Positions 1 to 15,464 of a DNA stretch of 32,000 nucleotides are shown piece after piece. The first letter of the stretch is position 1. Each line of letters starts with the position of its first letter. The notes under the pieces were generated by a model. That model was given only the letters and a program-made list of their open reading frames with translations. It made no database searches and was not told where the DNA came from. The DNA comes from Methylophaga frappieri (GTDB lineage: Bacteria; Pseudomonadota; Gammaproteobacteria; Nitrosococcales; Methylophagaceae): positions 810,001 to 842,000 of the forward strand of contig NC_017856.1 in assembly GCF_000260965.1 (NCBI RefSeq). Reading direction: 5' to 3'. The translations under genes and the position numbers were made by a program.

Positions 1-2
1 CA

Positions 3-359
3 CAAATAGCCAGCACTGATTCGAATTTGCAACGCGTATCCAAAGCCATTCGCTGGTTAAGAACACACTTCAAAGAGCCAATGAAAGTAGATGATCTCGC
101 CAATCTCAGTAATATGAGCGTGTCCGCCTTTCATCATCATTTCAAAACCGTCACCAGTATGACACCGTTGCAGTTTCAGAAAGAGTTGCGCCTACATGAG
201 GCTAAACAAGTCATGCTCAACCGGATGATGGATGTCAGTACGGCCTGCATGCATGTAGGCTATTCCAGTGTTTCACAATTTAGCCGTGAGTACAGCAGAT
301 TGTTTGGCGTTTCGCCAAGGCAACATGCTAAGGCAAACGTGGATAGCGCCTTGATGTAA
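3..359 (+). CDS. AraC/XylS-family transcriptional regulator, C-terminal HTH domain only (5' end lies outside the window)
   Basis: The reading frame is open back to the window start. MSVSAFHHHFKTVTSMTPLQFQKELRLHEAK and VGYSSVSQFSREYSRLFGVSPRQ match the double helix-turn-helix signature of AraC-family proteins. Confidence 0.8.
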   Translation, partial: QIASTDSNLQRVSKAIRWLRTHFKEPMKVDDLANLSNMSVSAFHHHFKTVTSMTPLQFQKELRLHEAKQVMLNRMMDVSTACMHVGYSSVSQFSREYSRLFGVSPRQHAKANVDSALM

Positions 360-1464
360 TGATCGGCAATAATCTGGGTAATCCTGACCATGCAATCAAG
401 TGATGACTTATTCGGCAGCCTAGTCCACCAAGTTCATCAATCAGACGGTCCCAACAAGTTTCGACATGAAACAACGAAGGCTGAAAATTGTTGTCATCTG
501 GCTTCTTCTGAAACAGCATTTCCAATCGGCTTTCTGTGACTCTTGTTTCAGAAAAAGCATGCGTTAACTGATTTCCGACAGCATTAATCATCATGGTGCC
601 GTCACGGGTTTTCATCACCGCTTTACACCGGTCTGGTTTGGTTATATGACACCATTTCATTAACGCTAGTGAATCAAAGTACCAGTCATCGGCAAACCGC
701 CAACCAAAGCTGAACCATCCATCCAATTCCTGTGTTTCGGCTAACCACCCCTTTTCTGATATCGGTGTCTCGTTTAATTCAAATGGAGTGATTAAGGCTG
801 AGTGAGTCCATTTCGTCTGTCTGGACTTGGCTATTGGGCTCAGCCAGGCCAGTTTAATCTCACCTTGCTCACAATCGTATATTGGGAAATCCTGTAAATT
901 CATCGCTTTGAGCGTTTTGTGCATTTGGAAGAAATCAGCTGCATCGGATAAATCTGTTTTATTGACAACCAGTGCGTCAGCAATCCGCAACTGTTGTTGA
1001 AACACCGCATGCTCGATATACCGTGTATCTCTAAAATGACGTGCATCGACAAGCGTGATGGTTGCTCGAATATCCAACAGCCCTTGATAATCGGGACCAC
1101 GCAATGTCGCGATGACCTCTTTGGGATGTCCTAGTCCGCTAGGTTCAATAATCAGACGATCCCATTTTCGAATTCTTAATAATTGATTTAAGGCGACTTG
1201 CATTGGTAATACGGCAGTACAGCACATACAGCCACCCACAACCTCGCGAATTTCAATCTGACTTTTTTGATTGGCCTGGCTGGTTAGCAATTGTCGATCA
1301 ATGCCAACTTTGCCAAACTCATTGATGAGGATCGCCCAATGCTCATTATCGGGCTTTTGTTTTAACAATTGCTGAATTGCAGAGGTTTTACCTACTCCAA
1401 GAAACCCGGTAATCACGTTAGTGGCAACACCACGTTGAATGCGACCGAGTGTCAATTTCGTCAT
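328..1464 (-). CDS. COG0523-family G3E GTPase (CobW/YjiA/ZigA-like putative metallochaperone), copy 1
   Basis: Walker A GFLGVGKT, CxCC metal motif GGCMCCT, IIEPSGLG and NKTD are present. The preferred start is the ATG at 1464 (MTKLTLG...) rather than the ORF-track start at 1515. The 3' end overlaps the convergent AraC gene by 32 nt. Confidence 0.8.
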   Translation of the reverse strand: MTKLTLGRIQRGVATNVITGFLGVGKTSAIQQLLKQKPDNEHWAILINEFGKVGIDRQLLTSQANQKSQIEIREVVGGCMCCTAVLPMQVALNQLLRIRKWDRLIIEPSGLGHPKEVIATLRGPDYQGLLDIRATITLVDARHFRDTRYIEHAVFQQQLRIADALVVNKTDLSDAADFFQMHKTLKAMNLQDFPIYDCEQGEIKLAWLSPIAKSRQTKWTHSALITPFELNETPISEKGWLAETQELDGWFSFGWRFADDWYFDSLALMKWCHITKPDRCKAVMKTRDGTMMINAVGNQLTHAFSETRVTESRLEMLFQKKPDDNNFQPSLFHVETCWDRLIDELGGLGCRISHHLIAWSGLPRLLPIITSRRYPRLP

Positions 1465-1567
1465 CTTAAATTTGTATTTATTTGAATACGGTAATGGCCT
1501 GGGCAAGTCGACCAATCTCGCTGGATAGAGACTATATCGACTTAAAAAAGCTGACTCTAACTGTCAT

Positions 1568-3226
1568 TTAATGTGAGAAAGCCCCATGAACGTTATGAAG
1601 CTGCAAGCGTGCTTCAGTTGCCTCGCTTTTCGCCAAACCATAATTACTCAAGCGGAGACTATAAAAGCGATCAAAATAGTCTTGGATATGGCCTTCAATA
1701 TTTCGGTCATAGCCCACATTAAGTGCCAAGGTTTTACCTGCCGCACTCACCATTATTTCTCCATTATCCAGTACTAATTGACCATTTTTAAATACTTTCT
1801 CTGCCCGCCGAAACATGGCTGCTTTATCTGCTTGCTCACGATAAATTGCGATATCTGCTTTCGCTCCTGGTTTAAGATGCCCCCGATCTGTCTGACCTAA
1901 TAATTTCGATGGGGCAGCACGTGTCATAATCGCAATATCGTTAAGACTGTACTCGCGTTTAATTTCTTTGAGTAACGTCATTTCCGCAATATCGGGATGC
2001 AGATTGCAGAGACATTCCATTCGATAGTCATAATCCATCAGCAATCTGAGTAAATCCGGATATCTTGTGAATGGTGCACCATTAGGATGATCTGTTGTAA
2101 AAAACAAACGCCAAGGATCATCACATAATAAAAAAATTTCCAGGCCGATGGCCCACTGTAAGCCATTAATGAAACTTGCTGACTTATATTGATAAGGCAC
2201 AATCCCCCCACTGCCCTCATTTTCAGCATGCCAAATATGCCATTTTTGCGGTGAGGCATCATGTCGACGATCAAATTGCGCCATCACATCACCAGAAAGT
2301 GTGACCGTCTGGCCGAATAAAACTTGACCTACATCCATCGTGATATTGGGGTGGCGATTAAAAGCGGTCATTAATTTCGCAGCGGAAGAGGAAAAACCAT
2401 ATTTGCCCTCATCGCCATATCCGTAGAATTGTACATGCGCTAAATGCATAGGCAGACCTTGCGCTGCCTCCATGGTATCGACTATGGTCTGGATGTTGCC
2501 CGGTGTCCCCAGATTGTTGCAATGGACATGTACAGGGTGCGGTAATCCGGTCTGAACGACGGCGGTTTGTAATTTCTGTAATAAGGTACGCGATGAAATA
2601 CCATAATCAGGTACGGTGTCATCCAGACCGAATGTCTCAACACCTTTTTTGAATGCCTGCGACCCACCAGCATTAATCACTTTTAAACCTAGCGCTTTGG
2701 TGACATTCATTGTCCAACTGACATAATCGTTAATTTGATTCTGACTGGCGTCAGCCCGTAATAATCTGACCAAAAAGTCATCGCTACCCAGCACTGCCAA
2801 TGCCGCTGTATCAATGATAGGAATATCAGCCAACTCGGCATGAACTTGCGGGGCATTAATTGGCAACATCGCTGGCTCAAGAACCATGCTATAGCCCATT
2901 TCAGTGTATCGATATCCGGTTTCAAATGAAGACCATTTGGCATTGTGAAACGGCTTTAAGCGATTACGCTGCAAATGATTACGGTGTTGATCCGGCAACA
3001 TGAGTCGAGCGGTATTTACATTGCCCCCTGCAATATGACTATGAATATCTAAGGCCCCTGCCATCGTCACTGCGCCTTCGAGATCGATCACCGTGGCCTG
3101 CTGTTGAAGACTTTGGCTTGGCTCATCAATAATTCTGTCATCACCAATCCACAATGTCTTTTTCTGGCCATCAGCATGTTGCAGTGGATCATAGACACAA
3201 GCATTTTTTAAACAGACGATATTCAT
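1568..3226 (-). CDS. FwdA/FhcA-family (formylmethanofuran dehydrogenase subunit A-like, COG1229) metal-dependent amidohydrolase
   Basis: 552 aa. The N-terminus MNIVCLKNACVYDP...MAGALDIHSHIAGGNVNTARLMLP resembles FwdA/FhcA proteins as I recall them. It carries an HxH motif (HSH) and further ligand-like motifs HVHCNN, HLAHVQF and TTDHPNG. An AAGGAG RBS lies 5 nt upstream of the ATG. No fwd/fhc partner genes are nearby. Confidence 0.7.
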   Translation of the reverse strand: MNIVCLKNACVYDPLQHADGQKKTLWIGDDRIIDEPSQSLQQQATVIDLEGAVTMAGALDIHSHIAGGNVNTARLMLPDQHRNHLQRNRLKPFHNAKWSSFETGYRYTEMGYSMVLEPAMLPINAPQVHAELADIPIIDTAALAVLGSDDFLVRLLRADASQNQINDYVSWTMNVTKALGLKVINAGGSQAFKKGVETFGLDDTVPDYGISSRTLLQKLQTAVVQTGLPHPVHVHCNNLGTPGNIQTIVDTMEAAQGLPMHLAHVQFYGYGDEGKYGFSSSAAKLMTAFNRHPNITMDVGQVLFGQTVTLSGDVMAQFDRRHDASPQKWHIWHAENEGSGGIVPYQYKSASFINGLQWAIGLEIFLLCDDPWRLFFTTDHPNGAPFTRYPDLLRLLMDYDYRMECLCNLHPDIAEMTLLKEIKREYSLNDIAIMTRAAPSKLLGQTDRGHLKPGAKADIAIYREQADKAAMFRRAEKVFKNGQLVLDNGEIMVSAAGKTLALNVGYDRNIEGHIQDYFDRFYSLRLSNYGLAKSEATEARLQLHNVHGAFSH

Positions 3227-3313
3227 GGAAACTCCTTGGCGGCCGTCGGTAAAGCATTAAACATTTTCAAGCCGATAAGGCCCAGCAGACGCATGGCATA
3301 AGCCATGATTAAT

Positions 3314-3330
3314 ACGATACATCGTATCAT
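3314..3330. promoter_or_regulatory. Candidate Fur-family (Zur) operator, box A: ACGATACATCGTATCAT
   Basis: 17-bp palindrome with 6 of 8 arm pairs complementary and a central T. It lies 88 nt upstream of the amidohydrolase start, just downstream of the zur stop. It shares the GATAyAT..TATCAT core with boxes B and C. Confidence 0.4.
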
Positions 3331-3343
3331 ATAAGGTCATACA

Positions 3344-3802
3344 TCATAGATCGGATACCTGGCAGTTCTCGCATAACCCGTGAAGCTCAAGCTGCGTATC
3401 AATGAGCTTAAAATTGTTATCACCGATATCCTTCAGTAATTGAGCAAACAAATCGTGGTCAATATTAATTTCATTAACCGACTGACACTTATCGCAGATT
3501 AAAAATTGTGATGTCTGGCCGAGCTGTTCATTCCCGATAGACGAACAGGCGATAAATTTGTTTGCCGAAGTTAATTTATGCGCCAAGTTATGAGAAATGA
3601 GAAATTCCAACATCCGATAAACGGACATAGCCGGGATGCTTTGGAAATATCTCTGTTGATATGAGTCAACAATATCATAGGCAGATAGCGGCCTGGACTC
3701 TGTCAGTATAATTTCCAGCACTTTTCGACGTTTAGGTGTCAATTTTGCCCCCCGCTCAAAGCAGGTTCTTTCGGCTCGATTTAAAATTTCATCCACTTCC
3801 AT
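3344..3802 (-). CDS. zur: Zinc uptake regulator, Fur family (Zur)
   Basis: By-eye alignment to E. coli Zur: AERTCFERGAKLTPKRRKVLEIIL / AEKICAQRNVRLTPQRLEVLRLM; LSAYDIVD / ISAYDLLD; SVYRMLEFL..AHKL / TVYRALDFL..VHKV; LICDKCQSV / FICDRCGAV; LHGLCENC / AHGLCAAC. The ORF-track start at 3829 is TTG, so the ATG at 3802 is preferred. Neither start has a strong RBS. Confidence 0.8.
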   Translation of the reverse strand: MEVDEILNRAERTCFERGAKLTPKRRKVLEIILTESRPLSAYDIVDSYQQRYFQSIPAMSVYRMLEFLISHNLAHKLTSANKFIACSSIGNEQLGQTSQFLICDKCQSVNEINIDHDLFAQLLKDIGDNNFKLIDTQLELHGLCENCQVSDL

Positions 3803-3883
3803 TGAAAGAATCCATTGCGCCTTACCCAAGCAAATTCACTGAAAATTACCACTAGAGTTGAATAATCTGTCAAAACATATGAT

Positions 3884-3900
3884 ATGATACATTATATCAT
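3884..3900. promoter_or_regulatory. Candidate Zur operator, box B: ATGATACATTATATCAT, in the zur / sufE-like divergent promoter region
   Basis: 17-bp palindrome with 7 of 8 arm pairs complementary and a central T. It lies 22 nt upstream of the sufE-like ATG and 82 nt upstream of the zur ATG. The 15-bp core matches my recalled E. coli Zur core TGTTATAWTATAACA at 12/15, against 10/14 for the Fur 7-1-7 core. Confidence 0.55.
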
Positions 3901-3921
3901 TAAATAGTTAATTAAGAGAAC

Positions 3922-4374
3922 ATGTCACAGTCCTCCAGTCACGAGAGCATTCAAGATGCACAAACCCAGATTATTCATAATTTTCGGGCATTCAATGATT
4001 GGGTAGACCGCTATGCCTACTTGGTTGATATGGGGAAAAAAATCATTCGTGATGGCAACCACCTAAAATCCGATCAGTACAAAATCACGGGTTGCCAATC
4101 AAATGTATGGCTTTGCACGGAGGTTACTGACAATAAATTGTACTTTTCAGGTACCAGCGACTCAACCATCGTCGCAGGGCTAATGGCATTATTATTCCGG
4201 GTCTATTCAGGCCACACCGCTGATGAGATACAACGAGCATCGCCAGACTTTATTACGCAAACGGGTCTTCTTCACAATTTGACCTCTCAGCGTTCAACCG
4301 GTCTTGCTCGCATGATTGAACAGATTTATCTCTCTGCCCATCAATCCTACCAACAGCAGGCTTTATCGAAATGA
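3922..4374 (+). CDS. SufE/CsdE-family sulfur-acceptor-like protein
   Basis: 150 aa. It aligns by eye with E. coli SufE: NFRAFNDWVDRYAYLVDMG / NFLRCANWEEKYLYIIELG; active-site region ITGCQSNVWL / IQGCQSQVWI; SDSTIVAGLMALL / SDAAIVKGLIAVV; LTSQRSTGLARMI / LTPSRSQGLEAMI. Confidence 0.8.
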   Translation: MSQSSSHESIQDAQTQIIHNFRAFNDWVDRYAYLVDMGKKIIRDGNHLKSDQYKITGCQSNVWLCTEVTDNKLYFSGTSDSTIVAGLMALLFRVYSGHTADEIQRASPDFITQTGLLHNLTSQRSTGLARMIEQIYLSAHQSYQQQALSK

Positions 4375-5495
4375 ATTCCTCCTACGATGTGATCATTGTT
4401 GGTGCAGGTGCTGCCGGTGTTGGCATGGCAACAAAACTGCAAATGATTCCGGAGTTGTCATTTGTTGTTTTAGAGGCGGGTGAGATTGGCGAATCGTTTC
4501 GACGCTGGCCAAAACAAACCCGATTCATTACGCCATCATTTCATAGCAATCCGTTTGGACTCGCTGACCTTAATGCCATCACAGAATACAGTTCACCAGC
4601 CATTTTTTGTCAATCACAACACCCGACGGGTAAACAATATGCCGATTACCTGACATTTATGGCACAGGGATTTGAGTTGCCAATTATTGAAGATTGTCAG
4701 GTAACGACCGTCAAACGGCTTAACGGACAGGGCTTTAGCTTAGAAACATCACAAGGACAAATCCAATCTCGATACCTTATCTGGGCAACCGGTGAATTTC
4801 AGTTTCCAGATGTCAATCCATTCATGGGTGCTGAATATTGTATTCACTATGCGACAGTCAGTGACTGGGCTGATTATGAGGCCGAAGAATTTATTGTGAT
4901 CGGTGGATATGAAAGCGGCGTTGATGCGAGTGTCAATTTAATCAAACAAGGACATGTTGTTCGCTTATTGGTAAAAAAAGATAGCTGGGAAGCGGAAAAT
5001 ATGTATGACCCCAGTCTATCGCTTTCCCCCCACACCCGAGATCGACTTAACGAGGCGCTCGCATCGGGGAAATTATTGTTGGAGTTTGGCGTACATGTTG
5101 ACCAAGTTCTTCAACATACAGACCAAACCTTTCATGTTCATGCTGAGGATGGCCGGTCTTGGTCAATCAATCATGCTCCGATTTTGGCAACCGGATTTTT
5201 ATCTGGTGGTGGCGCACAGCAAATCGCGTCGTTATGGGCTTGGGATAACGATGGCCATTTATTGTTAACCGAAGCAGATGAATCGACCATCACACCAGGG
5301 CTGTTTTTGATTGGGCCACAAGTTCGTCAGGAAGATCGACTCTACTGTTTTATTTATAAATTTCGCCAACGATTTACTCAAATGGCCAAACTCATCGCAC
5401 TTTGTCTAAATTATGACGATAGTCAGCTGCACAGTGAGTCTGATCCTTGGGGACCTTATGGAAATAGTGACTGCTGCGAGGGCTGCGAATGTTAA
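4371..5495 (+). CDS. FAD/NAD(P)-binding oxidoreductase (two-dinucleotide-fold flavoprotein, FMO/CzcO-like) with a C-terminal Cys-rich tail
   Basis: N-terminal DVIIVGAGAAGVG Rossmann motif, second nucleotide fold FIVIGGYESGVDAS, and an ATG motif (ILATGF). It ends in GNSDCCEGCEC. The start overlaps the sufE-like stop (ATGA, 4371-4374). Confidence 0.7.
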   Translation: MNSSYDVIIVGAGAAGVGMATKLQMIPELSFVVLEAGEIGESFRRWPKQTRFITPSFHSNPFGLADLNAITEYSSPAIFCQSQHPTGKQYADYLTFMAQGFELPIIEDCQVTTVKRLNGQGFSLETSQGQIQSRYLIWATGEFQFPDVNPFMGAEYCIHYATVSDWADYEAEEFIVIGGYESGVDASVNLIKQGHVVRLLVKKDSWEAENMYDPSLSLSPHTRDRLNEALASGKLLLEFGVHVDQVLQHTDQTFHVHAEDGRSWSINHAPILATGFLSGGGAQQIASLWAWDNDGHLLLTEADESTITPGLFLIGPQVRQEDRLYCFIYKFRQRFTQMAKLIALCLNYDDSQLHSESDPWGPYGNSDCCEGCEC

Positions 5496-6487
5496 ACCTA
5501 ATTACACCAATTTATCGAAACGGTTTGGGCCTTACCGCTCTCCTGCTTTTAACAGGCATTGTAGTTGGTTCTGTGACTGGCTATCTGGCTCCCAACATAG
5601 CCACTTATATCAGCGACTTTATGGATCCAACACTGTTTGTGTTGATTGTATTACTGTTTTTCACGATACGTTTTAACCCAATTATTACCGATAAGCGAAA
5701 GCTGAAATTTATTGCCATCGCGGTTATCGCGAATTTTGTGTTTGTGCCATTGATTGGCTTCGCCATTGCGTCGGTCTTTTTAAACCATTACCCCCTGTTT
5801 ATGTTGGGGTTAATGATTTATTTCATGTCACCTTGTACAGATTGGTTTTTAGGCTTTACCCGTCTCTGCCGAGGCGACACGATGCTCGGTGCGGCGCTAA
5901 TGCCGATCAATATGACATTACAATTATTGCTTTTCCCGCTTTTTTTATATTTATTCAGTCAAAATATTGTTGAATTAGAAACCGGCATTATCACCGATAC
6001 CTTATTGAACTGGTTTATTGAACCCGTCCTGATTGCGCTGACTGCACGATTGGCACTGAAGCTTGTGTTAAATCATGACCAAATTACACGGCTGCTGGAT
6101 AAAGTGAATCGACTTATCCCATTCATCATTGCCTTGCTGATTATGCAAATTTTTGCCGGCAATATTGATGTGTTGCTGGGCCATATTGATGTTTTCATCT
6201 GGATGTTACTGGCAGTGTTTTGCTTTTTTGTACTGACCTTTATGCTCAGTGAGTTTGTCAGTAAGCGATTTTCTCTGCCTTATTCAGAACATGTTTTACT
6301 CACCATGACCGTAGCAGCACGAAATGCGCCATTAATGTTAGCGGTCACCATGGTTGTTTTACCATCACAGCCCTTAATTTACGCAGCCATTGTTATTGGC
6401 ATGCTCCTGGAGTTTCCACACCTTACCTTGTTAAGCCATTTGCTGATGCGTTCATCACACTCAAAAACAGCAGAACGATTGGCATGA
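5489..6487 (+). CDS. Polytopic inner-membrane permease, ACR3 / bile-acid:Na+ symporter (SBF-like) superfamily
   Basis: 332 aa and almost entirely hydrophobic, with about 10 predicted helices. General resemblance to ACR3/BASS permeases, including the SPCTDW segment. The start overlaps the flavoprotein stop by 7 nt. The family call is by resemblance only. Confidence 0.6.
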   Translation: MLNLITPIYRNGLGLTALLLLTGIVVGSVTGYLAPNIATYISDFMDPTLFVLIVLLFFTIRFNPIITDKRKLKFIAIAVIANFVFVPLIGFAIASVFLNHYPLFMLGLMIYFMSPCTDWFLGFTRLCRGDTMLGAALMPINMTLQLLLFPLFLYLFSQNIVELETGIITDTLLNWFIEPVLIALTARLALKLVLNHDQITRLLDKVNRLIPFIIALLIMQIFAGNIDVLLGHIDVFIWMLLAVFCFFVLTFMLSEFVSKRFSLPYSEHVLLTMTVAARNAPLMLAVTMVVLPSQPLIYAAIVIGMLLEFPHLTLLSHLLMRSSHSKTAERLA

Positions 6488-6502
6488 TGAAATGAAATCA
6501 AC

Positions 6503-6540
6503 CCCACCTGAGTGACCTATCTATTTAGGTGGGCGTTTTA
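6503..6540 (+). terminator. Possible weak intrinsic terminator after the permease gene
   Basis: CCCACCT (6503-6509) pairs with AGGTGGG (6527-6533) across a 17-nt loop, followed by CGTTTTA. The large loop and short T tract make it weak. Confidence 0.35.
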
Positions 6541-6610
6541 TAGTACGGCTTTTGTTCACTCTCGCAACGTACTGATGGCGAAAGCCCCCTTCAAATGAGT
6601 TTTAAGCACC

Positions 6611-8626
6611 ATGTCATTATCCTCATCACACGCTAGTTCCTTGATCAAAGTTCAACTCGCATCAGGACAAGCGCACACCTTCAGTGAACCTGTACGTATC
6701 GATGAAGCACTGCAGGCCCTGATGCCGACAAAAACGCGCTTTGTCGTAGCAGCCACAGTAGATGGGCAACCCCATGATTTATCGGACGTTCTCCATAGCG
6801 ACTGTGTGGTTGAGCCGGTGTTTGCCAACACGGAGCAAGGCATCGACATCATTCGTCATTCCACAGCACATTTGTTTGGTCATGCCGTCAAACAACTGTT
6901 TCCTGACACTAAAATGGTCATAGGCCCGGTCATTGATAATGGCTTTTTTTATGACATCGACAGTGAGCACCGCTTTACGCCGGAAGACTTAGCCACCATT
7001 CAAGAGCGAATGGAAGCCCTGGCTAAGACCGCTTATACCGTTGTCAAAAAAATGACCGCCAAGGCTGAAGCCCGGGCAATATTTGAAGCCCGGGGCGAAA
7101 GCTACAAGGTGCGGCTCATTGATGATATGGCTGAGGACATCAAAGAAGTCGGCCTGTATTACCACGAAGAATACATTGATATGTGTCGTGGCCCGCATGT
7201 GCCGACTATGTCCTTCTGCAACGCCTTTCAATTAACCAAGCTGGCCGGCGCCTACTGGCGTGGCGATGCCAACAACGACATGCTGCAGCGTATTTATGGC
7301 ACTGCATGGTCGGATAAAAAAGCCCTCAAGGCCTACTTGCATCAGCTTGAAGAAGCGGAAAAACGCGACCACCGCAAGCTGGGCCGTCAACTCGATCTGT
7401 TTCATTTTCAGGAAGAGGCGCCGGGCTCGGTATTCTGGCACCCCAAGGGCTGGCAAGTCCTGCAGCAGTTAATTGCCTACCTGCGCCGTCGCCAGTCAGC
7501 CGAAGACTATGACGAAATCAATTCGCCAGATGCGATGGACAGAAGCCTCTGGGAAACCTCCGGTCACTGGGAAAACTACCGCGAGCATATGTTTACCACG
7601 GAGACCGCCGACGGTCGTGTATTGGCGATGAAGCCGATGAACTGTCCAGGCAGCGTGTTGCTCTACAAGCAGGGGGTAAAAAGCTACCGTGACCTACCGG
7701 TTCGCATGAGTGAGTTCGGTAAAGTGCACCGCTATGAGCCGTCTGGAGCCTTGCATGGTTTGTTGCGAGTCAGACACTTTACTCAGGATGACGCCCATAT
7801 CTACTGCACCCCTGCTCAAATGCAGCCGGAGTGTGTTGCTGCCATTGCCCTGTTGTTGGATATCTATAAACAGTTAGGCTTTGACGATATCCGCATCAAG
7901 CTGTCTACCCGGCCAGACAATCGCATTGGTTCGGATGAGACCTGGGATCGCCTAGAGCAGGCCCTCATTGACGCACTGGATGAGTTACAACTGCACTACC
8001 AAGTCAATGAAGGTGAAGGCGCATTTTATGGCCCCAAACTGGAATTTGTCTTACAAGACGCCATCAAACGCGACTGGCAGTGCGGCACCTTACAAGTGGA
8101 TATGAACCTGCCTGCCCGTTTTGAGCTCAGCTACATTGATGCCAGTGGCGCGCCTCAAGCACCGGTGATGCTGCATCGTGCCATTCTGGGCTCACTGGAG
8201 CGCTTTATCGGTATTCTTATCGAACAGTATGAAGGCAAGCTGCCCGTCTGGTTATCCCCTGTTCAACTGGTTATCTGCACCATACATGAAGGCCTCAGCG
8301 GTTACGCAGAGCAGGTTGCCCAGCTACTGCGTAATGCGGGATGTCGTGTCGATATCGATAGCCGTTCAGAAAAAATAGGCTACAAAATTCGTCAGCACAC
8401 CTTGCAGCGTATCCCCTACATTGCCGTTATCGGTGATAAAGAAAAAGAGAATCAGACACTCTCACTTCGCCAGTTGAACGGTGACAACCTGGGAACGCTT
8501 CAACTGAATGAGGTTGTCGCGATGATGAGCGAAGCGATTCAACCACCCGACCAGAAAGCGCAGGCTCAGCAACTTCAGGCTGTGCTGGAAGCATTGCAAC
8601 CCAAACAGGCTGACACCCATGAATGA
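6611..8626 (+). CDS. thrS: Threonyl-tRNA synthetase (full length: TGS, editing, catalytic and anticodon-binding domains)
   Basis: Editing-domain motifs [10 protein letters not shown] and DMCRGPH. Catalytic-site Zn ligand contexts [14 protein letters not shown] and MLHRAILGS are all retained. It is not followed by infC-rpmI-rplT. It has a Gln/Ala-rich C-terminal tail. Confidence 0.95.
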
Positions 8627-9971
8627 TACGCAAGCAGTATCCCGTCACGCTGACTTACTGATCACTGACGGCACCGTCATCACCCCATCCGGTGAACGGC
8701 ACATTGATATCGCCTGCCGACATGGACGTGTTGTGGCATTAGGTGATTTGCAGTCTCAGTGGTCAGCAGACACCACCTTATCCGTGAAGGGCCTGCATAT
8801 GATGCCCGGTGTGATGGACACACAGGTGCACTTCCGTGAACCGGGTTTAACCCACAAAGAGACGATTGAAGCGGGTACCCGAGGTGCCGTGCTTGGCGGG
8901 ATCACCGGCATCTTCGAGATGCCCAACACCAACCCGTTGACGATGCATAAAGCCGATCTTGATGCCAAGCTGGATATCGCTAAACGCTCCGCCTGGTGTG
9001 ACTATGCCTTCTATCTCGGTGGCTCTGCCGTGAATGCTGAGCAATTGGCCGAATTGGAATTGCTCCCCGGTTGCTCCGGCGTAAAAGTGTTTATGGGTAG
9101 CTCCTTTGGTGATTTGTTAACCGATGATCAAACCATACTTGAGCGTATTTTGATGTCGGGCCAGCGTCGTGTGGCAATTCATGCTGAGGATGAACAACGT
9201 CTGCGTGAGCGTCGTCAGCTTGTTGAAGCCGATCAAGACGTTCGTCAGCACCCTTTTTGGCGCGATGTCGACAGTGCCTTATTTGCGACCAAACGCATCG
9301 TCGCTTTGTCTGAAAAGACCTGTCGTCGCTTGCATGTGCTTCATATCAGTACTGAAGAAGAGATCACTTTCCTGGCAGAACATAAGCACCATGTCAGCGT
9401 TGAAGTCACGCCTCACCATCTGACCATGAGTGCGCCAGCGTGCTATGAACGCTTGGGTAGTCTCGCTCAAATGAACCCACCGGTCAGGGAAAAACGCCAT
9501 CAGGACGCCTTATGGCGTGCCATCAACAATGGCATTGTTGATGTGATTGGCAGTGACCACGCCCCGCACACTCTGGAAGAAAAAGCCAAGCCTTATCCAA
9601 ACTCACCCAGCGGTATGACTGGAGTGCAAACCCTGCTGCCGGTGATGCTCGATCATGTCCACCATGGTCGACTGACCCTGCAGCGTTTGGCCGATTTAAC
9701 CAGTGCAGGTCCTGCGCGTTTATTCAATATTCAGGGCAAAGGACGTATTGCCGTGGGCTACGACGCCGACTTTTCTATTGTTGATCTCTCAGCCAGGCGC
9801 ACCATTGAAAACAGCTGGATTGCCAGCCAGTCAGGCTGGTCACCTTACGATGGCAAAGCCATCACCGGTTGGCCGATTCATACCATCGTACGCGGCAATA
9901 TCGTTGTTCGGGACGAGGCATTGTCGACCCGGCCGGACGCTCAGCCTATCCAGTTTGATTATCACCAGTAA
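8619..9971 (+). CDS. pyrC: Dihydroorotase-like amidohydrolase (long, class I type)
   Basis: [60 protein letters not shown] and GSDHAPH. The start overlaps the thrS stop by 8 nt (ATGAATGA). Confidence 0.85.
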
Positions 9972-9989
9972 CGACTTTAGGACTTTACC

Positions 9990-10478
9990 ATGACCGAAAC
10001 ATCACCGTCCCTGTTTCACGACAGGAAAACCATCGAGCAGGTCGAGGAAGGCAACGAACTCGCGCCAAAATTTGATGAGCAGGGCTTGATTAGCTGTATT
10101 ACCACCGACCATGCCTCAGGCGAGGTATTGATGCTGGGCTATATGAACCAGGAAGCGCTCAGCAAAACCATTGAAACCGGCGAGGCACATTATTGGAGTC
10201 GTTCACGGAAAACCTTGTGGCACAAAGGTAAGACCAGTGGCCTTGTCCAGCAGGTCATCGAAATGCGTATTGATGACGATCAGGATGCGATCTGGCTGGC
10301 AGTGAAGGTACTGGGCTCAGGCGCAAGCTGCCATGTTGGCTATCGCTCCTGCTTTTATCGTCGTGTCCCGGTCGGACAAGACCGTGAGCAACAAGCAGAT
10401 CTGGTCTTCACCGAACAGACAAAAGTGTTTGAGCCGGAAGACGTCTACGGCGATGCGCCCAACCCAACCATACTCTAA
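9990..10478 (+). CDS. hisI: Phosphoribosyl-AMP cyclohydrolase (monofunctional HisI)
   Basis: [32 protein letters not shown] and [11 protein letters not shown] match the HisI domain of E. coli HisIE. An AGGA RBS precedes the start. There is no HisE fusion and no neighbouring his genes. Confidence 0.9.
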
Positions 10479-10480
10479 TC

Positions 10481-13400
10481 TTAGTGTGTTGCTCGCTCTT
10501 GTTTAACGGAGTCGAGCAACACCTCTACCGGGTGTTTTAACCTCACATCCTGCATTCTTTTTACTTGCGAACGACACGAATAGCCGGTCGCTAACACTTC
10601 TTCATTCGGCTGCGTCTGTGCTAATTGTGGCGCCCAGGATTGCTGGAAAATCGTAGTCGAGGTGTCAAGATTTCGCAGTTCATGACCATAGGTACCTGAC
10701 ATGCCACAGCAGCCTGTAGACACCACAGACATAGGCAGACCGCGACGTTTGAATACAGCTTGCCACTGTGCAGTGCTGCTGGCCGCATTGGTTTTTTCAG
10801 TACAGTGCATGAATAGCTTATAGGTGGCTGACGCAGTCGACGCACTGCTTTCAGGTAAATGTTTCATCAACCATTCCTGTGGCAGTAACACCTCTGGCAC
10901 TGATCCAGCATTCGTAAGGGCTGCATATTCTTGTCGGTAAATTAAGGTCATCGCCGGATCCAGCCCGACTAAGGTCACATTCAACGCCGCCAAGGCATTC
11001 AACGCGTCGATATTACGCTGTGCCGTTTTAGCAAAAGCTGTTCTAAAGCCCTGAACATGTAAAGGTTTGCCGTTGGGAAGATGTTTGGCCAACCACACCG
11101 AGTAACCTAATTCAGACATCAACTCGACCAATGCCGCTAAAACACGCGTATCAAAATAGCGGGTAAAGGTATCCTGAACCAAGACCACACAGCGTTCTTT
11201 CTCAGCGGCACTCAGCTGAGATAATTCTTCAGCGGTAGCCGTTTTAACGCCCCATTGCTGTAAGTTCGCTTGAAAAGCCGGATGTTCTGAATCAAATAGC
11301 GGGCTGTCCACCATACCAATGGTTTTCGCCAACAGTCGCTTCACCCACGCCTGCCCCATCACACCGTTGTAAAGCGGTGAAACACGCGATAGATAAGGGA
11401 TAAAGAACTCCAGCGAGGCCACCAGATACTCCCTCAATGGCCGGAAGTAGCGTTGATGATAGAGGAACAAAAACCGTGATCGCAGCTCAGGAATGTTCAC
11501 TTTAACAGGGCATTGACCGACACAGGATTTACAGGCCAGACACCCCGCCATTGCATCGTAAACTTCATGGTTAAAGCTGTCTTCCGCCTTTCGCCTTTTT
11601 TTCGTCACAGCCTGTTTGAGTTGCTGCCACGATGAGTAATCAGCTGATGCACGCTCTTTTTCAGCGGCATCCACACCACTCAGTTGCTGCAGTCGTAACC
11701 ACTCGCGCATTGCCGAAGCACGGCCTTTGGGAGAATGGATACGTTGCCGTGTCGCTTTCCATGATGGACACATGGCATCGTTGACGTCGTAGTTATAGCA
11801 GGCGCCATTGCCATTACAGTGCATGCTGGCACCAAAGCTTTGCCAGTTTGACGGTGCGATTTGTCGATCATACTCACCGCGTAGAGCAACACCATCAATC
11901 TTAAGTAAGGCGTCTTTGGCAGACCCCAAGGGCGAGGCAATCTTGCCGGGATTCAACTGGTTATTGGGATCAAACAGGCTTTTGACTTGCTGAATAGCCG
12001 GGTACAAGTCGCCAAAGAATTGCGGCACATACTCAGAGCGCAACCCTTTACCATGCTCACCCCATAACAGGCCGCCATACTTTTCAATCAGTTTGACCGC
12101 GTGATCGGTGATCGGTCGTATCAGCGCCGCCTGCTCCGGGTCTTTCATATCCAAGGCCGGCCTGACATGCAAAACACCGGCATCAACGTGTCCGAACATC
12201 CCGTATTGCAGTTCGTGGCCATCCAGTAAATCACGAAGCTCAGCAATAAAATCGGCCAGGTTTTCCGGCGGTACCGCCATATCTTCAATAAACGGCTGCG
12301 GCCGGGCTTCACCCTGCGAGTTACCGAGCAAACCCACGGCGCGTTTACGCATCCCATAGACCCGCTTCACCGCATCTTCACCTGCAGCCAGGGTATAACC
12401 CGATCGTGCTATGGACTGATCCTGCTCCAGATACGCCAAAAAAGCACTCACCTCGGTATCAACCGACGACTTGCTGTCGCCGCTGAACTCGATCAGGTTA
12501 ATACCCAGAACATTACCACTGTCATCAGGGAAATATTCACAAACGCTCTGCCAAACACTGTCTTTTTGTGCCAATTGCAGCACCCGCGAATCAACCGTTT
12601 CAATCGAGAGTGGTTGGTGCTCCATCAACGTTTTGGCGTCACGTAATGCGTCCATGAAGCTCGGGTAACGAAGGTTGATGAGCACGGAGTAGTTGGGAAT
12701 GGGGAGTAAATTCAGCTTGGCTTCAACCACAAAGCCCAAGGTGCCCTCAGAGCCACAGATAACACTGTTTAGATTGAACTCACCCTTCTCATTCAAGTGC
12801 GCCAAGTCATAGCCGGTCAAGCAGCGATTCAACTTAGGAAAGGTTGACGCTATCAATGCCGCATTTTCGCTGCTGAGCTTATCCAGGGATTGATAAATTG
12901 ATGCCTCACGTTCACTAAGGCTCGCGGTATGTTGCGCGAGTTCTGTCGCAGTAATGGCCTGCGTATGCAGCTGCTCACCACCGACAACAACCGTATCCAG
13001 TTCAATCACATGATCACGTGTTTTGCCATACACACAGCTACCCTGGCCGCTGGCATCGGTGTTGATCATGCCGCCAATTGTTGCTCTGTTTGATGTCGAT
13101 AACTCAGGTGAGAAAAACAAGCCATGAGGCTTCAGTAAGGCATTTAACTGATCTTTGACCACACCGGCCTGCACCCTGGCCCAACGCTCATCCACATTGA
13201 TCTCCAGTACCCGGTTTAAGTGGCGAGACAGGTCCACCACAATGCCATCTGTCAGTGACTGTCCATTGGTACCCGTACCGCCGCCTCTTGCGGTAATCAC
13301 GATTTCAGTAAACGCTGGCTGCGCCATCAAGCTAGCCAACAGACTTACGTCTTCTACGGTGGCCGGAAAGACAATGGCCTGCGGCAGACGTTGATAAATA

Positions 13401-13540
13401 GAGTTATCCGTCGCAAACACGGTACGCGTGGCGTAGTCGCTCTCTATTTCACCGACAAAGCCTGTTTGCTGGAGTGTGTGCAAAAAGTCCTGGTAGACGG
13501 AAGAAATCAGGGATGATGAATTAACTGCCTGAATAATCAT
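10481..13540 (-). CDS. ydiJ: FAD-linked oxidase fused to Fe-S / CCG-domain oxidoreductase (YdiJ-like D-2-hydroxyglutarate dehydrogenase family)
   Basis: 1019 aa. It has an N-terminal FAD-binding oxidase domain (ARGGGTGTNGQS), a central ferredoxin-like cluster (CLACKSCVGQCP) and a C-terminal Cys-rich CCG-like motif (GCCGMSGTYG). Size and architecture match E. coli YdiJ as I recall it. Confidence 0.75.
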   Translation of the reverse strand: MIIQAVNSSSLISSVYQDFLHTLQQTGFVGEIESDYATRTVFATDNSIYQRLPQAIVFPATVEDVSLLASLMAQPAFTEIVITARGGGTGTNGQSLTDGIVVDLSRHLNRVLEINVDERWARVQAGVVKDQLNALLKPHGLFFSPELSTSNRATIGGMINTDASGQGSCVYGKTRDHVIELDTVVVGGEQLHTQAITATELAQHTASLSEREASIYQSLDKLSSENAALIASTFPKLNRCLTGYDLAHLNEKGEFNLNSVICGSEGTLGFVVEAKLNLLPIPNYSVLINLRYPSFMDALRDAKTLMEHQPLSIETVDSRVLQLAQKDSVWQSVCEYFPDDSGNVLGINLIEFSGDSKSSVDTEVSAFLAYLEQDQSIARSGYTLAAGEDAVKRVYGMRKRAVGLLGNSQGEARPQPFIEDMAVPPENLADFIAELRDLLDGHELQYGMFGHVDAGVLHVRPALDMKDPEQAALIRPITDHAVKLIEKYGGLLWGEHGKGLRSEYVPQFFGDLYPAIQQVKSLFDPNNQLNPGKIASPLGSAKDALLKIDGVALRGEYDRQIAPSNWQSFGASMHCNGNGACYNYDVNDAMCPSWKATRQRIHSPKGRASAMREWLRLQQLSGVDAAEKERASADYSSWQQLKQAVTKKRRKAEDSFNHEVYDAMAGCLACKSCVGQCPVKVNIPELRSRFLFLYHQRYFRPLREYLVASLEFFIPYLSRVSPLYNGVMGQAWVKRLLAKTIGMVDSPLFDSEHPAFQANLQQWGVKTATAEELSQLSAAEKERCVVLVQDTFTRYFDTRVLAALVELMSELGYSVWLAKHLPNGKPLHVQGFRTAFAKTAQRNIDALNALAALNVTLVGLDPAMTLIYRQEYAALTNAGSVPEVLLPQEWLMKHLPESSASTASATYKLFMHCTEKTNAASSTAQWQAVFKRRGLPMSVVSTGCCGMSGTYGHELRNLDTSTTIFQQSWAPQLAQTQPNEEVLATGYSCRSQVKRMQDVRLKHPVEVLLDSVKQERATH

Positions 13541-13714
13541 TTAACTTGTGAAATTGGGCATAACAACAAAAAACACCGACGATCATCTACAACTGCACTG
13601 TCATTCACGCGTTTGAAAAGCATTGATAACGGGCAACATGCCGCTCTCAATCAAAAACGTAATATGATGGGGAAATAGCGAACAATCTTGGTAGGTGTTT
13701 GTTAAATATGCTGG

Positions 13715-14926
13715 CTAAGCAGGTTGCCATTGAGGAAATGGATCCGTCATGGTTTCCCACAATGATTTACCTGCGAGTAACTCTTCATCGCTGATAAGGC
13801 ACTCATCCAGCATGTTTCTGACCTGACCTTCATCCATATTCTGGCCAATAAATACCAGTTCCTGACGCATATCGCCGAACGGTTCCACCCAGTGCTCTTT
13901 GATGATTTTCAGTGACTCTTCATCCTGTGGCCAGCGACTTTCCGGTACCGCACGCCAGAACATGCCCGCAAAGCCATGCCGCGCAATACCGCCCGCCTGA
14001 CTCCACTGACCTGCAAATTGCGGTCGGCTGGCCAGCCAGAAATACCCCTTGGAACGAATCAGTTTTCCACACGGCCACTCTTGGTGCAGAAAGTCATAAA
14101 ACTTCTGTGGGTTGAACGGTTTACGCGCCGTATAAGTAAAGCTGCTTATGCCATACTCTTCCGTCTCCGGTTTGTGTTCACCGCGTCCTTCCTGCAACCA
14201 ACCTGCTGATTGTTCTGCTTTTTCAAAATCGAACTTGCCGGTTGCCAGCACTTTATCGAGGGCGACCTGTCCTTGCTCGATGGGAACAATCTCGGCGACG
14301 GGATTTAAGCCTTTGATAACACCGATGACAGCATTGAGTTGTTCTGGGCTACAGAGGTCGGTTTTGCTAATCAAAATCACATCACAGAATTCAATCTGAT
14401 CCACCAGCAGATCAGCGACACTTCGCTCATCGTCTTCGCCCAGTGATTCACCGGCATCCTGTAGCATGTCTGCCTGCTGGAAATCATTCAGAAAGTTGGC
14501 GGCATCCACCACCGTGACCATCGTATCCAGACGCGCCACTTCTGACAGGCTCTGTCCATCCTCATCAGCGAAGGTAAAGGTTTCGGCTACCGGTAACGGC
14601 TCAGAAATACCGGTAGATTCAATCACCAGATAATCAAAGCGGCCTTCATCAGCCAGACGACGAACCTCTAGCAATAAGTCCTCACGCAAGGTGCAGCAAA
14701 TGCAGCCATTGCTCATTTCTACCAACTTTTCTTCAGACCGGTTGAAATCAACCTCGTTATTGACTTGCTGAGCATCAATGTTGATTTCGCTCATATCATT
14801 AACAATGACGGCTACCTTTCGGCCCTCACGGTTGTTGAGAATATGATTCAGAACGGTGGTTTTGCCAGCCCCAAGGAAACCTGACAAAACGGTAACCGGC
14901 AGGCGTTTGTCCTGTTCAATGGTCAT
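13715..14926 (-). CDS. COG0523-family G3E GTPase (YeiR/ZigA-like zinc metallochaperone candidate), copy 2
   Basis: Walker A GFLGAGKT, CxCC motif [16 protein letters not shown] and SKTD, plus a CobW C-terminal-like domain. The preferred start is the ATG at 14926 (MTIEQ...), with an AAGGAA RBS about 6 nt upstream. This start overlaps the dksA-like stop by 11 nt. Confidence 0.85.
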
Positions 14927-15314
14927 AGTGGCTTTCCTTTTTTTCATTTATCGTTTTTGCATCAGTCGAAAACTCGGCCGTTGGTCGAAGCAATAGACGT
15001 TGAATGCCTATTGGCTCTCCAGTCTGCGTGCAATACCCATAATCACCCATACGAATTCGGTGACGTGCAGCATCAATTTTAGGAATAAGCTGGCGTTTTC
15101 TGTCTGCGATTCGAATGGCAATAATTGCTTCTTCCTCTAATGTCGCCCGATCACTAACATCACTCACCCTGGCTTGTGAAATTTCAGCGCGAAGTGCTTC
15201 TATTTCCTGTAGCGTTTCCTGCCGAAGCTGTTGCAAGCGAAGATCAAAAAATGCCAGTTGTTCTGCATTCATGTACTCATCGTCTGATGCATTTAATAAG
15301 GTTTTTTCATCCAT
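14916..15314 (-). CDS. dksA2: DksA-family RNA-polymerase-binding protein lacking the Cys4 zinc finger (DksA2-type)
   Basis: Coiled-coil tip DVSDRA (DxxDxA) is present. The C-terminal region [31 protein letters not shown] aligns with E. coli [31 protein letters not shown], but only the first of the four Cys is kept. The preferred start is the ATG at 15314 (MDEKTLL...). Confidence 0.8.
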
Positions 15315-15443
15315 CTTTCTGATCCAACATTCGTTTGGCCACTGAGAACACATCTTGATTTTTATTTACAAATTGATTTCTGGTTCTCAGTTCAGCGCTC
15401 GATTTGATATTGAGAATCCAACTAAGGAAAGTCACTTGTATTT

Positions 15444-15464
15444 ATGATATATCATATCATTATA
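15444..15464 (-). promoter_or_regulatory. Candidate Zur operator, box C (ATGATATATCATATCAT, 15444-15460), abutting a perfect -10 hexamer for the dksA2-COG0523 operon
   Basis: 17-bp palindrome with 7 of 8 arm pairs complementary and a central T. On the minus strand, TATAAT (15459-15464) overlaps the operator edge by 2 nt, so the likely transcription start falls inside the box. The core matches the recalled Zur core at 12/15. Confidence 0.55.

Follow-up and report, generated by a model that had tools for sequence, protein, structure and literature searches.

Described pairs of G3E GTPases and their clients include UreG with urease and, within the COG0523 family, the nitrile hydratase activators, ZigA, and Zng1 with MetAP1. 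FolE2 and DksA2 are zinc-independent replacements, and the genus Methylophaga comprises marine methylotrophs. We analyzed a 32 kb stretch of Methylophaga frappieri DNA (hereafter the window) in which three genes within the first 3.9 kb of the minus strand bring these themes together: a Zur-like repressor, a binuclear-metal amidohydrolase that we name FhcA2, and a COG0523 GTPase (Table 1). With a probability of roughly 0.6, we propose that FhcA2 serves the formyltransferase/hydrolase (Fhc) complex as a spare subunit under Zur repression, made at low zinc, loaded with metal by its dedicated COG0523 GTPase, and able to sustain formaldehyde oxidation.

The closest described protein is FhcA of Methylorubrum extorquens, which was solved as part of the Fhc complex (6S6Y) and whose binuclear site is built by His57, His59, His229, His258, Asp377, and the carboxylated Lys176 (PMC6926001). 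FhcA2 belongs to the same family (TIGR03121), aligns with this protein over its full length at 497 bits, and carries the same six ligands. It differs in lying away from fhcB, fhcC, and fhcD and beside zur and COG0523, in belonging to a separate clade marked by A316, R320, and C405, and in being a second copy where an operon-encoded FhcA already exists. A second point of reference is the set of Zur-regulated paralogs (PyrC2, HisI2, ThrRS2, QueD2, FolE2/FolE1B, and DksA2), which are zinc-enzyme duplicates placed behind a Zur box (PMC2770081, PMC11672702). FhcA2 resembles them as a duplicate of this kind with a Zur-box-like site, in an island that holds COG0523, a ZIP transporter, a TonB receptor, and classic members of the paralog set; it is specific to one-carbon (C1) metabolism and, unlike PyrC2, DksA2, and FolE2, retains every metal ligand. 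FhcA is absent from the published Zur-paralog lists that could be searched, including the nine families of Haas et al. (HisI, PyrC, Cam, HemB, CysRS, ThrRS, AmiA, QueD, and DksA; PMC2770081).

Urease and UreG provide the third comparison. In both cases, a metalloenzyme gene has a G3E P-loop GTPase gene as its neighbor. The parallel, though no more than an analogy, is a good one, since each client belongs to the amidohydrolase superfamily and has a binuclear site bridged by a carboxy-lysine. The FhcA2 pair departs from the urease system in that UreD/E/F-like accessory genes are missing, the GTPase is a COG0523 protein rather than UreG, FhcA2 is often flanked by two different COG0523 genes, and contact and metal transfer within the pair are predictions. 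Finally, ZigA (NF038288) shares its family, motifs, and island with the FhcA2-linked GTPase, which differs in scoring 74 bits against a cutoff of 600, in being shorter, in the lack of a detected CobW_C domain, and in sitting on a different branch of COG0523. The preliminary description of this DNA had taken the pairing to be undescribed, and our literature searches likewise found no paper linking FhcA or FwdA with Zur or COG0523.

The open reading frame coordinates agree with that description on three minus-strand genes in the order zur, amidohydrolase, and COG0523, with a gap of 117 nt between the first two (3227–3343) and of 103 nt between the last two (1465–1567). The second gap is counted from the ATG at 1464, which is the likely start of the GTPase, while its open reading frame extends mechanically to a TTG at 1515. 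In an NCBIfam profile search, FhcA2 scores 648.8 bits against TIGR03121 (FwdA/FhcA; COG1229), for which the cutoff is 392.75, and it also matches Amidohydro_3 in Pfam. The closest solved structure is chain 6S6Y_A of the M. extorquens complex: residues 11–526 of FhcA2 align with residues 10–524, co-linearity being judged at the sequence level. Five archaeal FwdA structures match over ~525 residues at ~315–350 bits. All six ligands of the binuclear site are present in FhcA2, as H62, H64, H235, H264, D379, and K182, and the corresponding motifs (HSH, K182, HVH, HLAH, and TTDH) are found in the sequence. The ligands are invariant throughout the FhcA2 and canonical FhcA groups in comparisons of 147 and 114 sequences. 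Both the family placement and the intact ligand motifs that had been read from the letters alone are thus borne out. Because all six ligands are kept, FhcA2 should still be a metalloenzyme and should still need metal. A metal-independent replacement in the style of FolE2 or DksA2 is ruled out by the same retention of every ligand. FhcA2 is 47.5% identical to the canonical FhcA of Methylophaga and 59.8% identical to the copy in the zinc island of Methylotuvimicrobium buryatense.

The canonical gene lies elsewhere in this genus. A comparison of six Methylophaga genomes, JAM7 included, reported the tetrahydromethanopterin (H4MPT) formaldehyde-oxidation pathway in all of them; for M. thiooxydans, it listed fhcA, fhcB, fhcC, and fhcD (PMC6548844). 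The FhcB sequence of this species, taken from the supplement of that study, was used as a query for Methylophaga FhcB proteins, and the corresponding loci were then fetched. In Methylophaga sp. SB9B, contig SSXS01000005 (locus L034) carries fhcB, a 555-residue fhcA, fhcD, and fhcC; a further locus (L035) comes from a related read set, and the fhcB-A-D-C operon is also found on two more Methylophaga-type contigs (L036 and L037). The same strain encodes an FhcA2 ortholog of 547 residues, 75% identical to the window protein, on contig SSXS01000003 (L002), where a cobW gene lies upstream of FhcA2 and overlaps it by 17 nt. M. muralis likewise has both copies, FhcA2 at L016 and the canonical WP_069294867.1. 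Across Methylophaga, FhcA2 and canonical FhcA are 47–49% identical, and by sequence comparison the window gene is a second FhcA paralog belonging to a distinct paralog clade. Since the fhc operon of a sister genome holds its own fhcA, FhcA2 is probably neither an orphan nor a displaced single copy. In the preliminary description, the protein stood as an orphan with an unknown substrate. That part does not hold, given a methylotrophic host, the H4MPT pathway in the genus, and full fhc operons in SB9B and M. muralis; the family, the ligands, the Zur-type zinc island, and the conserved COG0523 pairing did stand. The same description had named a simply displaced FhcA as the finding that would overturn it, and this candidate was rejected on the evidence of the sister genomes, where the fhc operon has an fhcA of its own. 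In an omics study of M. thiooxydans, a single fhcA is listed (MDMS009_1429).

We collected FhcA loci by a scan of one genome per species, a metagenome scan, and targeted look-ups, and mapped reference proteins onto them by tblastn. The genomic contexts proved mutually exclusive. A COG0523 gene lies within 3 kb at 42 of 115 unique FhcA loci, none of which has fhcB, fhcC, or fhcD, while 46 of the 115 have fhcB, fhcC, or fhcD and none of these has COG0523 (Fisher's exact test, p = 4e-26, uncorrected for shared ancestry). No homolog of fhcB, fhcC, or fhcD was matched anywhere in the window, as had been noticed at the outset, nor within 8–10 kb at any of the 53 loci of the FhcA2 clade. Every Methylophaga locus with enough flank is COG0523-linked. 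The gene order reads cobW, DUF1826, HisI-like, cobW, ZIP, FhcA2, cobW, FolE2 in Methylotuvimicrobium buryatense, and Fur-family regulator, TonB receptor, cobW, ZIP, DUF1826, FhcA2, QueD-like, FolE2, HisI-like in Methylomonas rapida. Linkage is also seen in many metagenomic contigs, one of which (515 kb) has cobW genes on both flanks of FhcA2. In neighbour-joining trees, all linked FhcA copies except those at L074 and L075 form one large clade, which splits into a branch of Methylophaga sequences and another in which all named members belong to Methylococcales. This FhcA2 clade nests among operon-encoded gammaproteobacterial FhcAs, the canonical clade of which comprises Sedimenticola, Thiohalocapsa, and metagenome-assembled genomes (MAGs); the canonical FhcA of Methylophaga forms a separate long branch. 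A query with a gammaproteobacterial FhcD, a strongly conserved protein, gave no Methylophaga among its best 120 matches.

A third deep clade of FhcA-like proteins, at 47–52% identity, has intact ligands and neither fhcBCD nor COG0523 nearby (L080, L083, L084, L093, L095, L106, L108, L112, L113, and L120, with L076, L098, L103, and L109). A divergent HisI-like gene lies ~700–800 bp upstream in 10 of these 14 loci.

The 82 COG0523 proteins from the collected loci fell into four groups in a tree. One, with members of about 402 residues, meets the ZigA equivalog cutoff and is never immediately adjacent to FhcA2; against NF038288, the window ZigA scores 701 bits and the copy at L039 scores 656, the cutoff being 600. 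A group of about 329 residues, YjiA-like and below the YjiA cutoff, lies immediately upstream of FhcA2 in 11 of 13 cases, and a group of about 325 residues lies immediately downstream in 9 of 13. The fourth is the clade that contains the window GTPase: all 22 members are adjacent to FhcA2 or within 3 kb of it, whether upstream and overlapping, directly downstream, or two genes downstream after a MerC-like gene and ZrgA. These three FhcA2-adjacent subfamilies are distinct from ZigA, and all carry the Walker A and CxCC motifs. The window GTPase itself matches the Pfam cobW domain (PF02492) at 153.5 bits, with GFLGVGKT as its Walker A motif and GGCMCC around its CxCC motif; Pfam detects no CobW_C domain. 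Its scores fall below the cutoffs of the named subfamilies, at 73.9 bits against 600 for ZigA, 87.1 against 361 for the YjiA type, and 108.6 against 332 for CobW. The FhcA2 and COG0523 genes overlap at start and stop in some loci, which suggests translational coupling. Co-occurrence analysis thus extends to other genomes, and to dedicated GTPase subfamilies, a pairing that had at first been seen in this DNA only.

The closest relatives of the locus (L001, positions 11724–12711; L007, L008, L009, L042, and L043) have genes for a MerC-like membrane protein and ZrgA between FhcA2 and COG0523, with a further Zur-box-like site ahead of the MerC-like gene; the window has neither of the two genes. 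The window GTPase has a C-terminus some 35–40 residues longer than relatives of 335–345 residues (region 328–470, minus strand), and its 3' end overlaps a convergent AraC-family gene (27–359, plus strand) by 32 nt. A frameshift or the loss of a stop codon may account for the extra length.

The regulator encoded upstream of fhcA2 carries two CxxC motifs. Among solved structures it is closest to 7DH7, whose deposition names it a Fur-family regulator, and to Zur of E. coli (4MTD); Fur and PerR rank behind both. Allowing up to two mismatches to the palindrome TGATAnnATGTATnnTATnA, the 32 kb window contains two sites only (3310–3329 and 3880–3899) where 0.07 are expected by chance, and the upstream box pointed out in the preliminary description is therefore real. 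Similar boxes occur 79–101 nt upstream of FhcA2 at L001, L007, L008, L042, L043, L048, and L049; at L048 and L049, the box is present although COG0523 is absent. Related palindromes are also found ahead of other island operons, and L001 and L006 have equivalents of the site between the sufE-like gene and zur. When the upstream regions of diverged Methylophaga loci are aligned, the palindrome is the sole conserved block. In loci of the Methylococcales type, the equivalent sites read TGATATGTTATAACATATCA, which resembles GTTATAnTATAAC, the core of the proteobacterial Zur box. Binding and repression by Zur at 3310–3329 are predicted. The gap between fhcA2 and COG0523 contains no Zur box and no terminator-like site that we could find, so the two genes are probably co-transcribed.

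Table 1. Genes and predicted regulatory sites of the zinc-starvation island in the 32 kb Methylophaga frappieri window.
Feature	Position	Strand	Remarks
COG0523 (G3E) GTPase, FhcA2-linked subfamily	328–1464	minus	378 residues from the ATG at 1464
FhcA2, binuclear-metal amidohydrolase, paralog of the formyl-methylofuran hydrolase subunit FhcA	1568–3226	minus	552 residues
Zur-box-like 9-2-9 palindrome, TGATACGATGTATCGTATTA as read on the minus strand	3310–3329		84 nt upstream of fhcA2
Zur-like Fur-family repressor	3344–3829	minus	mechanical open reading frame from TTG at 3829; likely start ATG at 3802
Second Zur-box-like palindrome, TGATATAATGTATCATATCA	3880–3899		divergent zur/sufE-like promoter region
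Gene string, predicted Zur-controlled: SufE-like protein, Pyr_redox_3 flavoprotein, SBF-family transporter, threonyl-tRNA synthetase (ThrRS), PyrC2-type dihydroorotase, HisI-like cyclohydrolase	3922–10478	plus	divergent
ZigA	13715–14947	minus	start overlapped 32 nt by the DksA2-type gene
DksA2-type protein	14916–15353	minus	DksA domains; no CxxC motif; three Cys in total
Weaker third Zur-box-like site, three mismatches	15440–15459		87 nt upstream of the dksA2-zigA pair

The wider setting of fhcA2 is that of a zinc-starvation island, where it sits among known Zur-regulon genes: zur, ZigA, and the PyrC2-type, DksA2-type, HisI-like, ThrRS, and TonB-dependent receptor genes. The PyrC2-, DksA2-, HisI-, and ThrRS-type genes match families of Zur-regulated paralogs (PMC2770081, PMC11672702). 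In the dihydroorotase (8619–9971, plus strand; 711 bits against NF006559), QVH replaces the expected metal-binding HxH, and this Gln substitution (QxH) is the signature of the Zur-regulated PyrC2 (PMC11672702). The divergent gene string recurs in L001 and L006, and related loci add ZIP, FolE2, QueD-like, and ZrgA genes.

Other features of the island concern its neighboring genes. The ThrRS of the divergent string is full length (6611–8626, plus strand) and is probably a ThrRS2-type backup. ThrRS-like genes lie directly downstream of FhcA2 in two loci of the Methylococcales type (L050, 4477–6201; L069, 3716–5431), and in Methylomonas rapida (L038, 9802–10227) ThrRS is reduced to a 141-residue fragment of the anticodon domain. 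The SufE-like protein, the Pyr_redox_3 flavoprotein, and the SBF/ACR3-like transporter form a conserved trio behind the divergent Zur-box-like site (3922–6487, plus strand, in the window; 6595–9167 in L001), and none of them is a recognized zinc-starvation gene. The G+C content rises from ~0.44 over positions 1–7000 to ~0.52 over ~7000–14000, with a step near position 7000. The components of the island differ widely in their identity to L001, a sister MAG, which is high for the HisI-like protein (94%), the dihydroorotase (94%), FhcA2 (87%), and ThrRS (86%), and low for the SufE-like protein (70%), the flavoprotein (70%), the transporter (67%), the COG0523 GTPase (60%), and Zur (59%). Such a pattern suggests that the modules differ in their history or were exchanged recently.

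We used these data to outline how the locus might work. A housekeeping FhcA would be supplied by the fhcB-A-D-C operon at another place in the genome, and FhcA2 by the zinc-starvation island. When zinc is sufficient, Zur would occupy the palindrome 84 nt upstream of fhcA2 and keep this gene and the downstream COG0523 gene repressed; scarcity of zinc would allow the expression of both. The dedicated GTPase would then load the binuclear site of FhcA2 at the expense of GTP hydrolysis, with scarce zinc or possibly another metal, in a manner akin to the loading of the carboxy-lysine site of urease by UreG. FhcA2, whose likeliest substrate would be formyl-methylofuran, would replace under-metallated FhcA in the Fhc complex of the H4MPT pathway, so that formaldehyde could continue to flow to formate.

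Several observations weigh against this proposal. First, the operon evidence for M. frappieri consists of the genus-level statement in PMC6548844, whose supplements give no JAM7 locus tags, and of two sister genomes; FhcB cluster look-ups aimed at M. frappieri returned matches from other Methylophaga only. A canonical fhcA beside FhcA2 in Methylococcales was sought and not demonstrated, and literature searches on this point gave nothing usable. Second, the regulator falls in Pfam FUR with Zur (NF008646) as its best NCBIfam match, at 96 bits and below the cutoff of 167. Third, the FhcA trees are neighbour-joining trees without bootstrap, and within them a subclade nested in FhcA2 (L040, L041, L052, L065–L067, and L071) has no COG0523 nearby; a scan for Zur-box-like sites in this subclade found none. 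The linkage between FhcA2 and COG0523 is therefore not obligatory. This subclade may reflect a secondary loss of zinc control, or its protein may be the sole FhcA of that lineage. One of its members is abundant in metagenomes, being indexed in 69 collection blocks. Fourth, COG0523 genes abound in zinc islands, so that their position beside fhcA2 could by itself stem from nothing more than co-regulation.

This last point leads to the explanation that survives best after our own, namely that FhcA2 is a zinc-starvation isoform and that the adjacent COG0523 proteins serve the island as GTPases for zinc allocation or buffering in general, with no specific contact to it. Islands with up to three or four COG0523 genes beside varied paralogs (HisI-like, FolE2, and QueD-like) would fit such a view, as would the FhcA2 subclade without a nearby COG0523. 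We nonetheless consider it unlikely. The generic ZigA type branches separately and keeps away from the immediate neighborhood of FhcA2, and the subfamilies that do adjoin FhcA2 are almost confined to FhcA2 loci (22/22, 11/13, and 9/13). The persistence of the linkage through rearrangements, together with the start/stop overlaps that suggest translational coupling, speaks for a functional tie that is specific and goes beyond a shared place in one island.

The residues that set FhcA2 apart from FhcA form the remaining point against the spare-subunit proposal. R316 is found in all 47 FhcAs linked to fhcBCD and is Ala in 51 of 53 FhcA2 sequences; an Arg appears at position 320 in 50 of the 53. Further signatures are W405 to Cys, I252 to Met, and V297 to Met. 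Of ten signature positions in all, four are grouped within 297–323, between ligands H264 and D379. These residues could indicate an altered partner or substrate, although some divergence is expected because the clade is monophyletic. The preliminary description favored a neofunctionalized amidohydrolase, which would hydrolyze another amide under zinc limitation and have no role with formyl-methylofuran or FhcBCD. The exchange of R316 for an Arg at 320, the cluster of signatures after H264, and the fact that FhcA2 never lies beside fhcB, fhcC, or fhcD would agree with this idea. We regard it as improbable for reasons that lie both in the protein and in its surroundings: FhcA2 is co-linear with FhcA over its full length, at 50–60% identity and with intact ligands; its clade nests inside the gammaproteobacterial FhcAs; the named source organisms are all methylotrophs or methanotrophs; the genus Methylophaga has the H4MPT pathway; and all other enzyme paralogs of the island are of the same-reaction backup type. 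A metal-swapped isozyme, working with iron, manganese, nickel, or cobalt delivered by COG0523 and thereby truly zinc-sparing, would be compatible with the evidence for a spare subunit, could draw on the gained Cys405, Met252, and Met297 for altered metal handling, and has a parallel in the relaxed metal preference discussed for the analogous PyrC2 (PMC11672702), but it is very improbable, with first-shell ligands identical to those of canonical FhcA, a sequence that indicates no metal identity, and island COG0523 genes that lie among genes for zinc uptake (ZIP, ZrgA, and the TonB receptor).

The proposal of a Zur-repressed spare subunit can be carried one step further. FhcA2 and its one or two COG0523 proteins might conceivably form a self-contained, urease-like module for metallocentre assembly, in which the GTPases would load FhcA2 specifically, possibly with a metal other than zinc, and make the hydrolysis of formyl-methylofuran independent of zinc; this is a tentative extension that we would not yet favor. 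If it were true, gene order would directly reveal the client of a bacterial COG0523 protein for the first time, and C1 oxidation would for the first time be tied to the supply of zinc.

COG0523 proteins are widespread and their clients mostly unknown, and the identification of clients is the main difficulty of the field. Here the gene order points to one candidate client for which a structure and an assay exist, in a setting that includes genetically tractable methanotrophs such as M. buryatense. With a candidate client, a structure, an assay, and tractable hosts, the specificity of a chaperone for its client becomes directly testable. Both FhcA paralogs carry the same public annotation, 'formylmethanofuran dehydrogenase subunit A', so metabolic reconstructions and meta-omics counts of 'fhcA/fwdA' merge two genes that are predicted to be differently regulated. 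Our analysis adds an enzyme of C1 metabolism to the predicted Zur regulon. By implication, a shortage of zinc, a common condition in sea water, may threaten formaldehyde detoxification in marine methylotrophs and methanotrophs enough to have selected for a backup.

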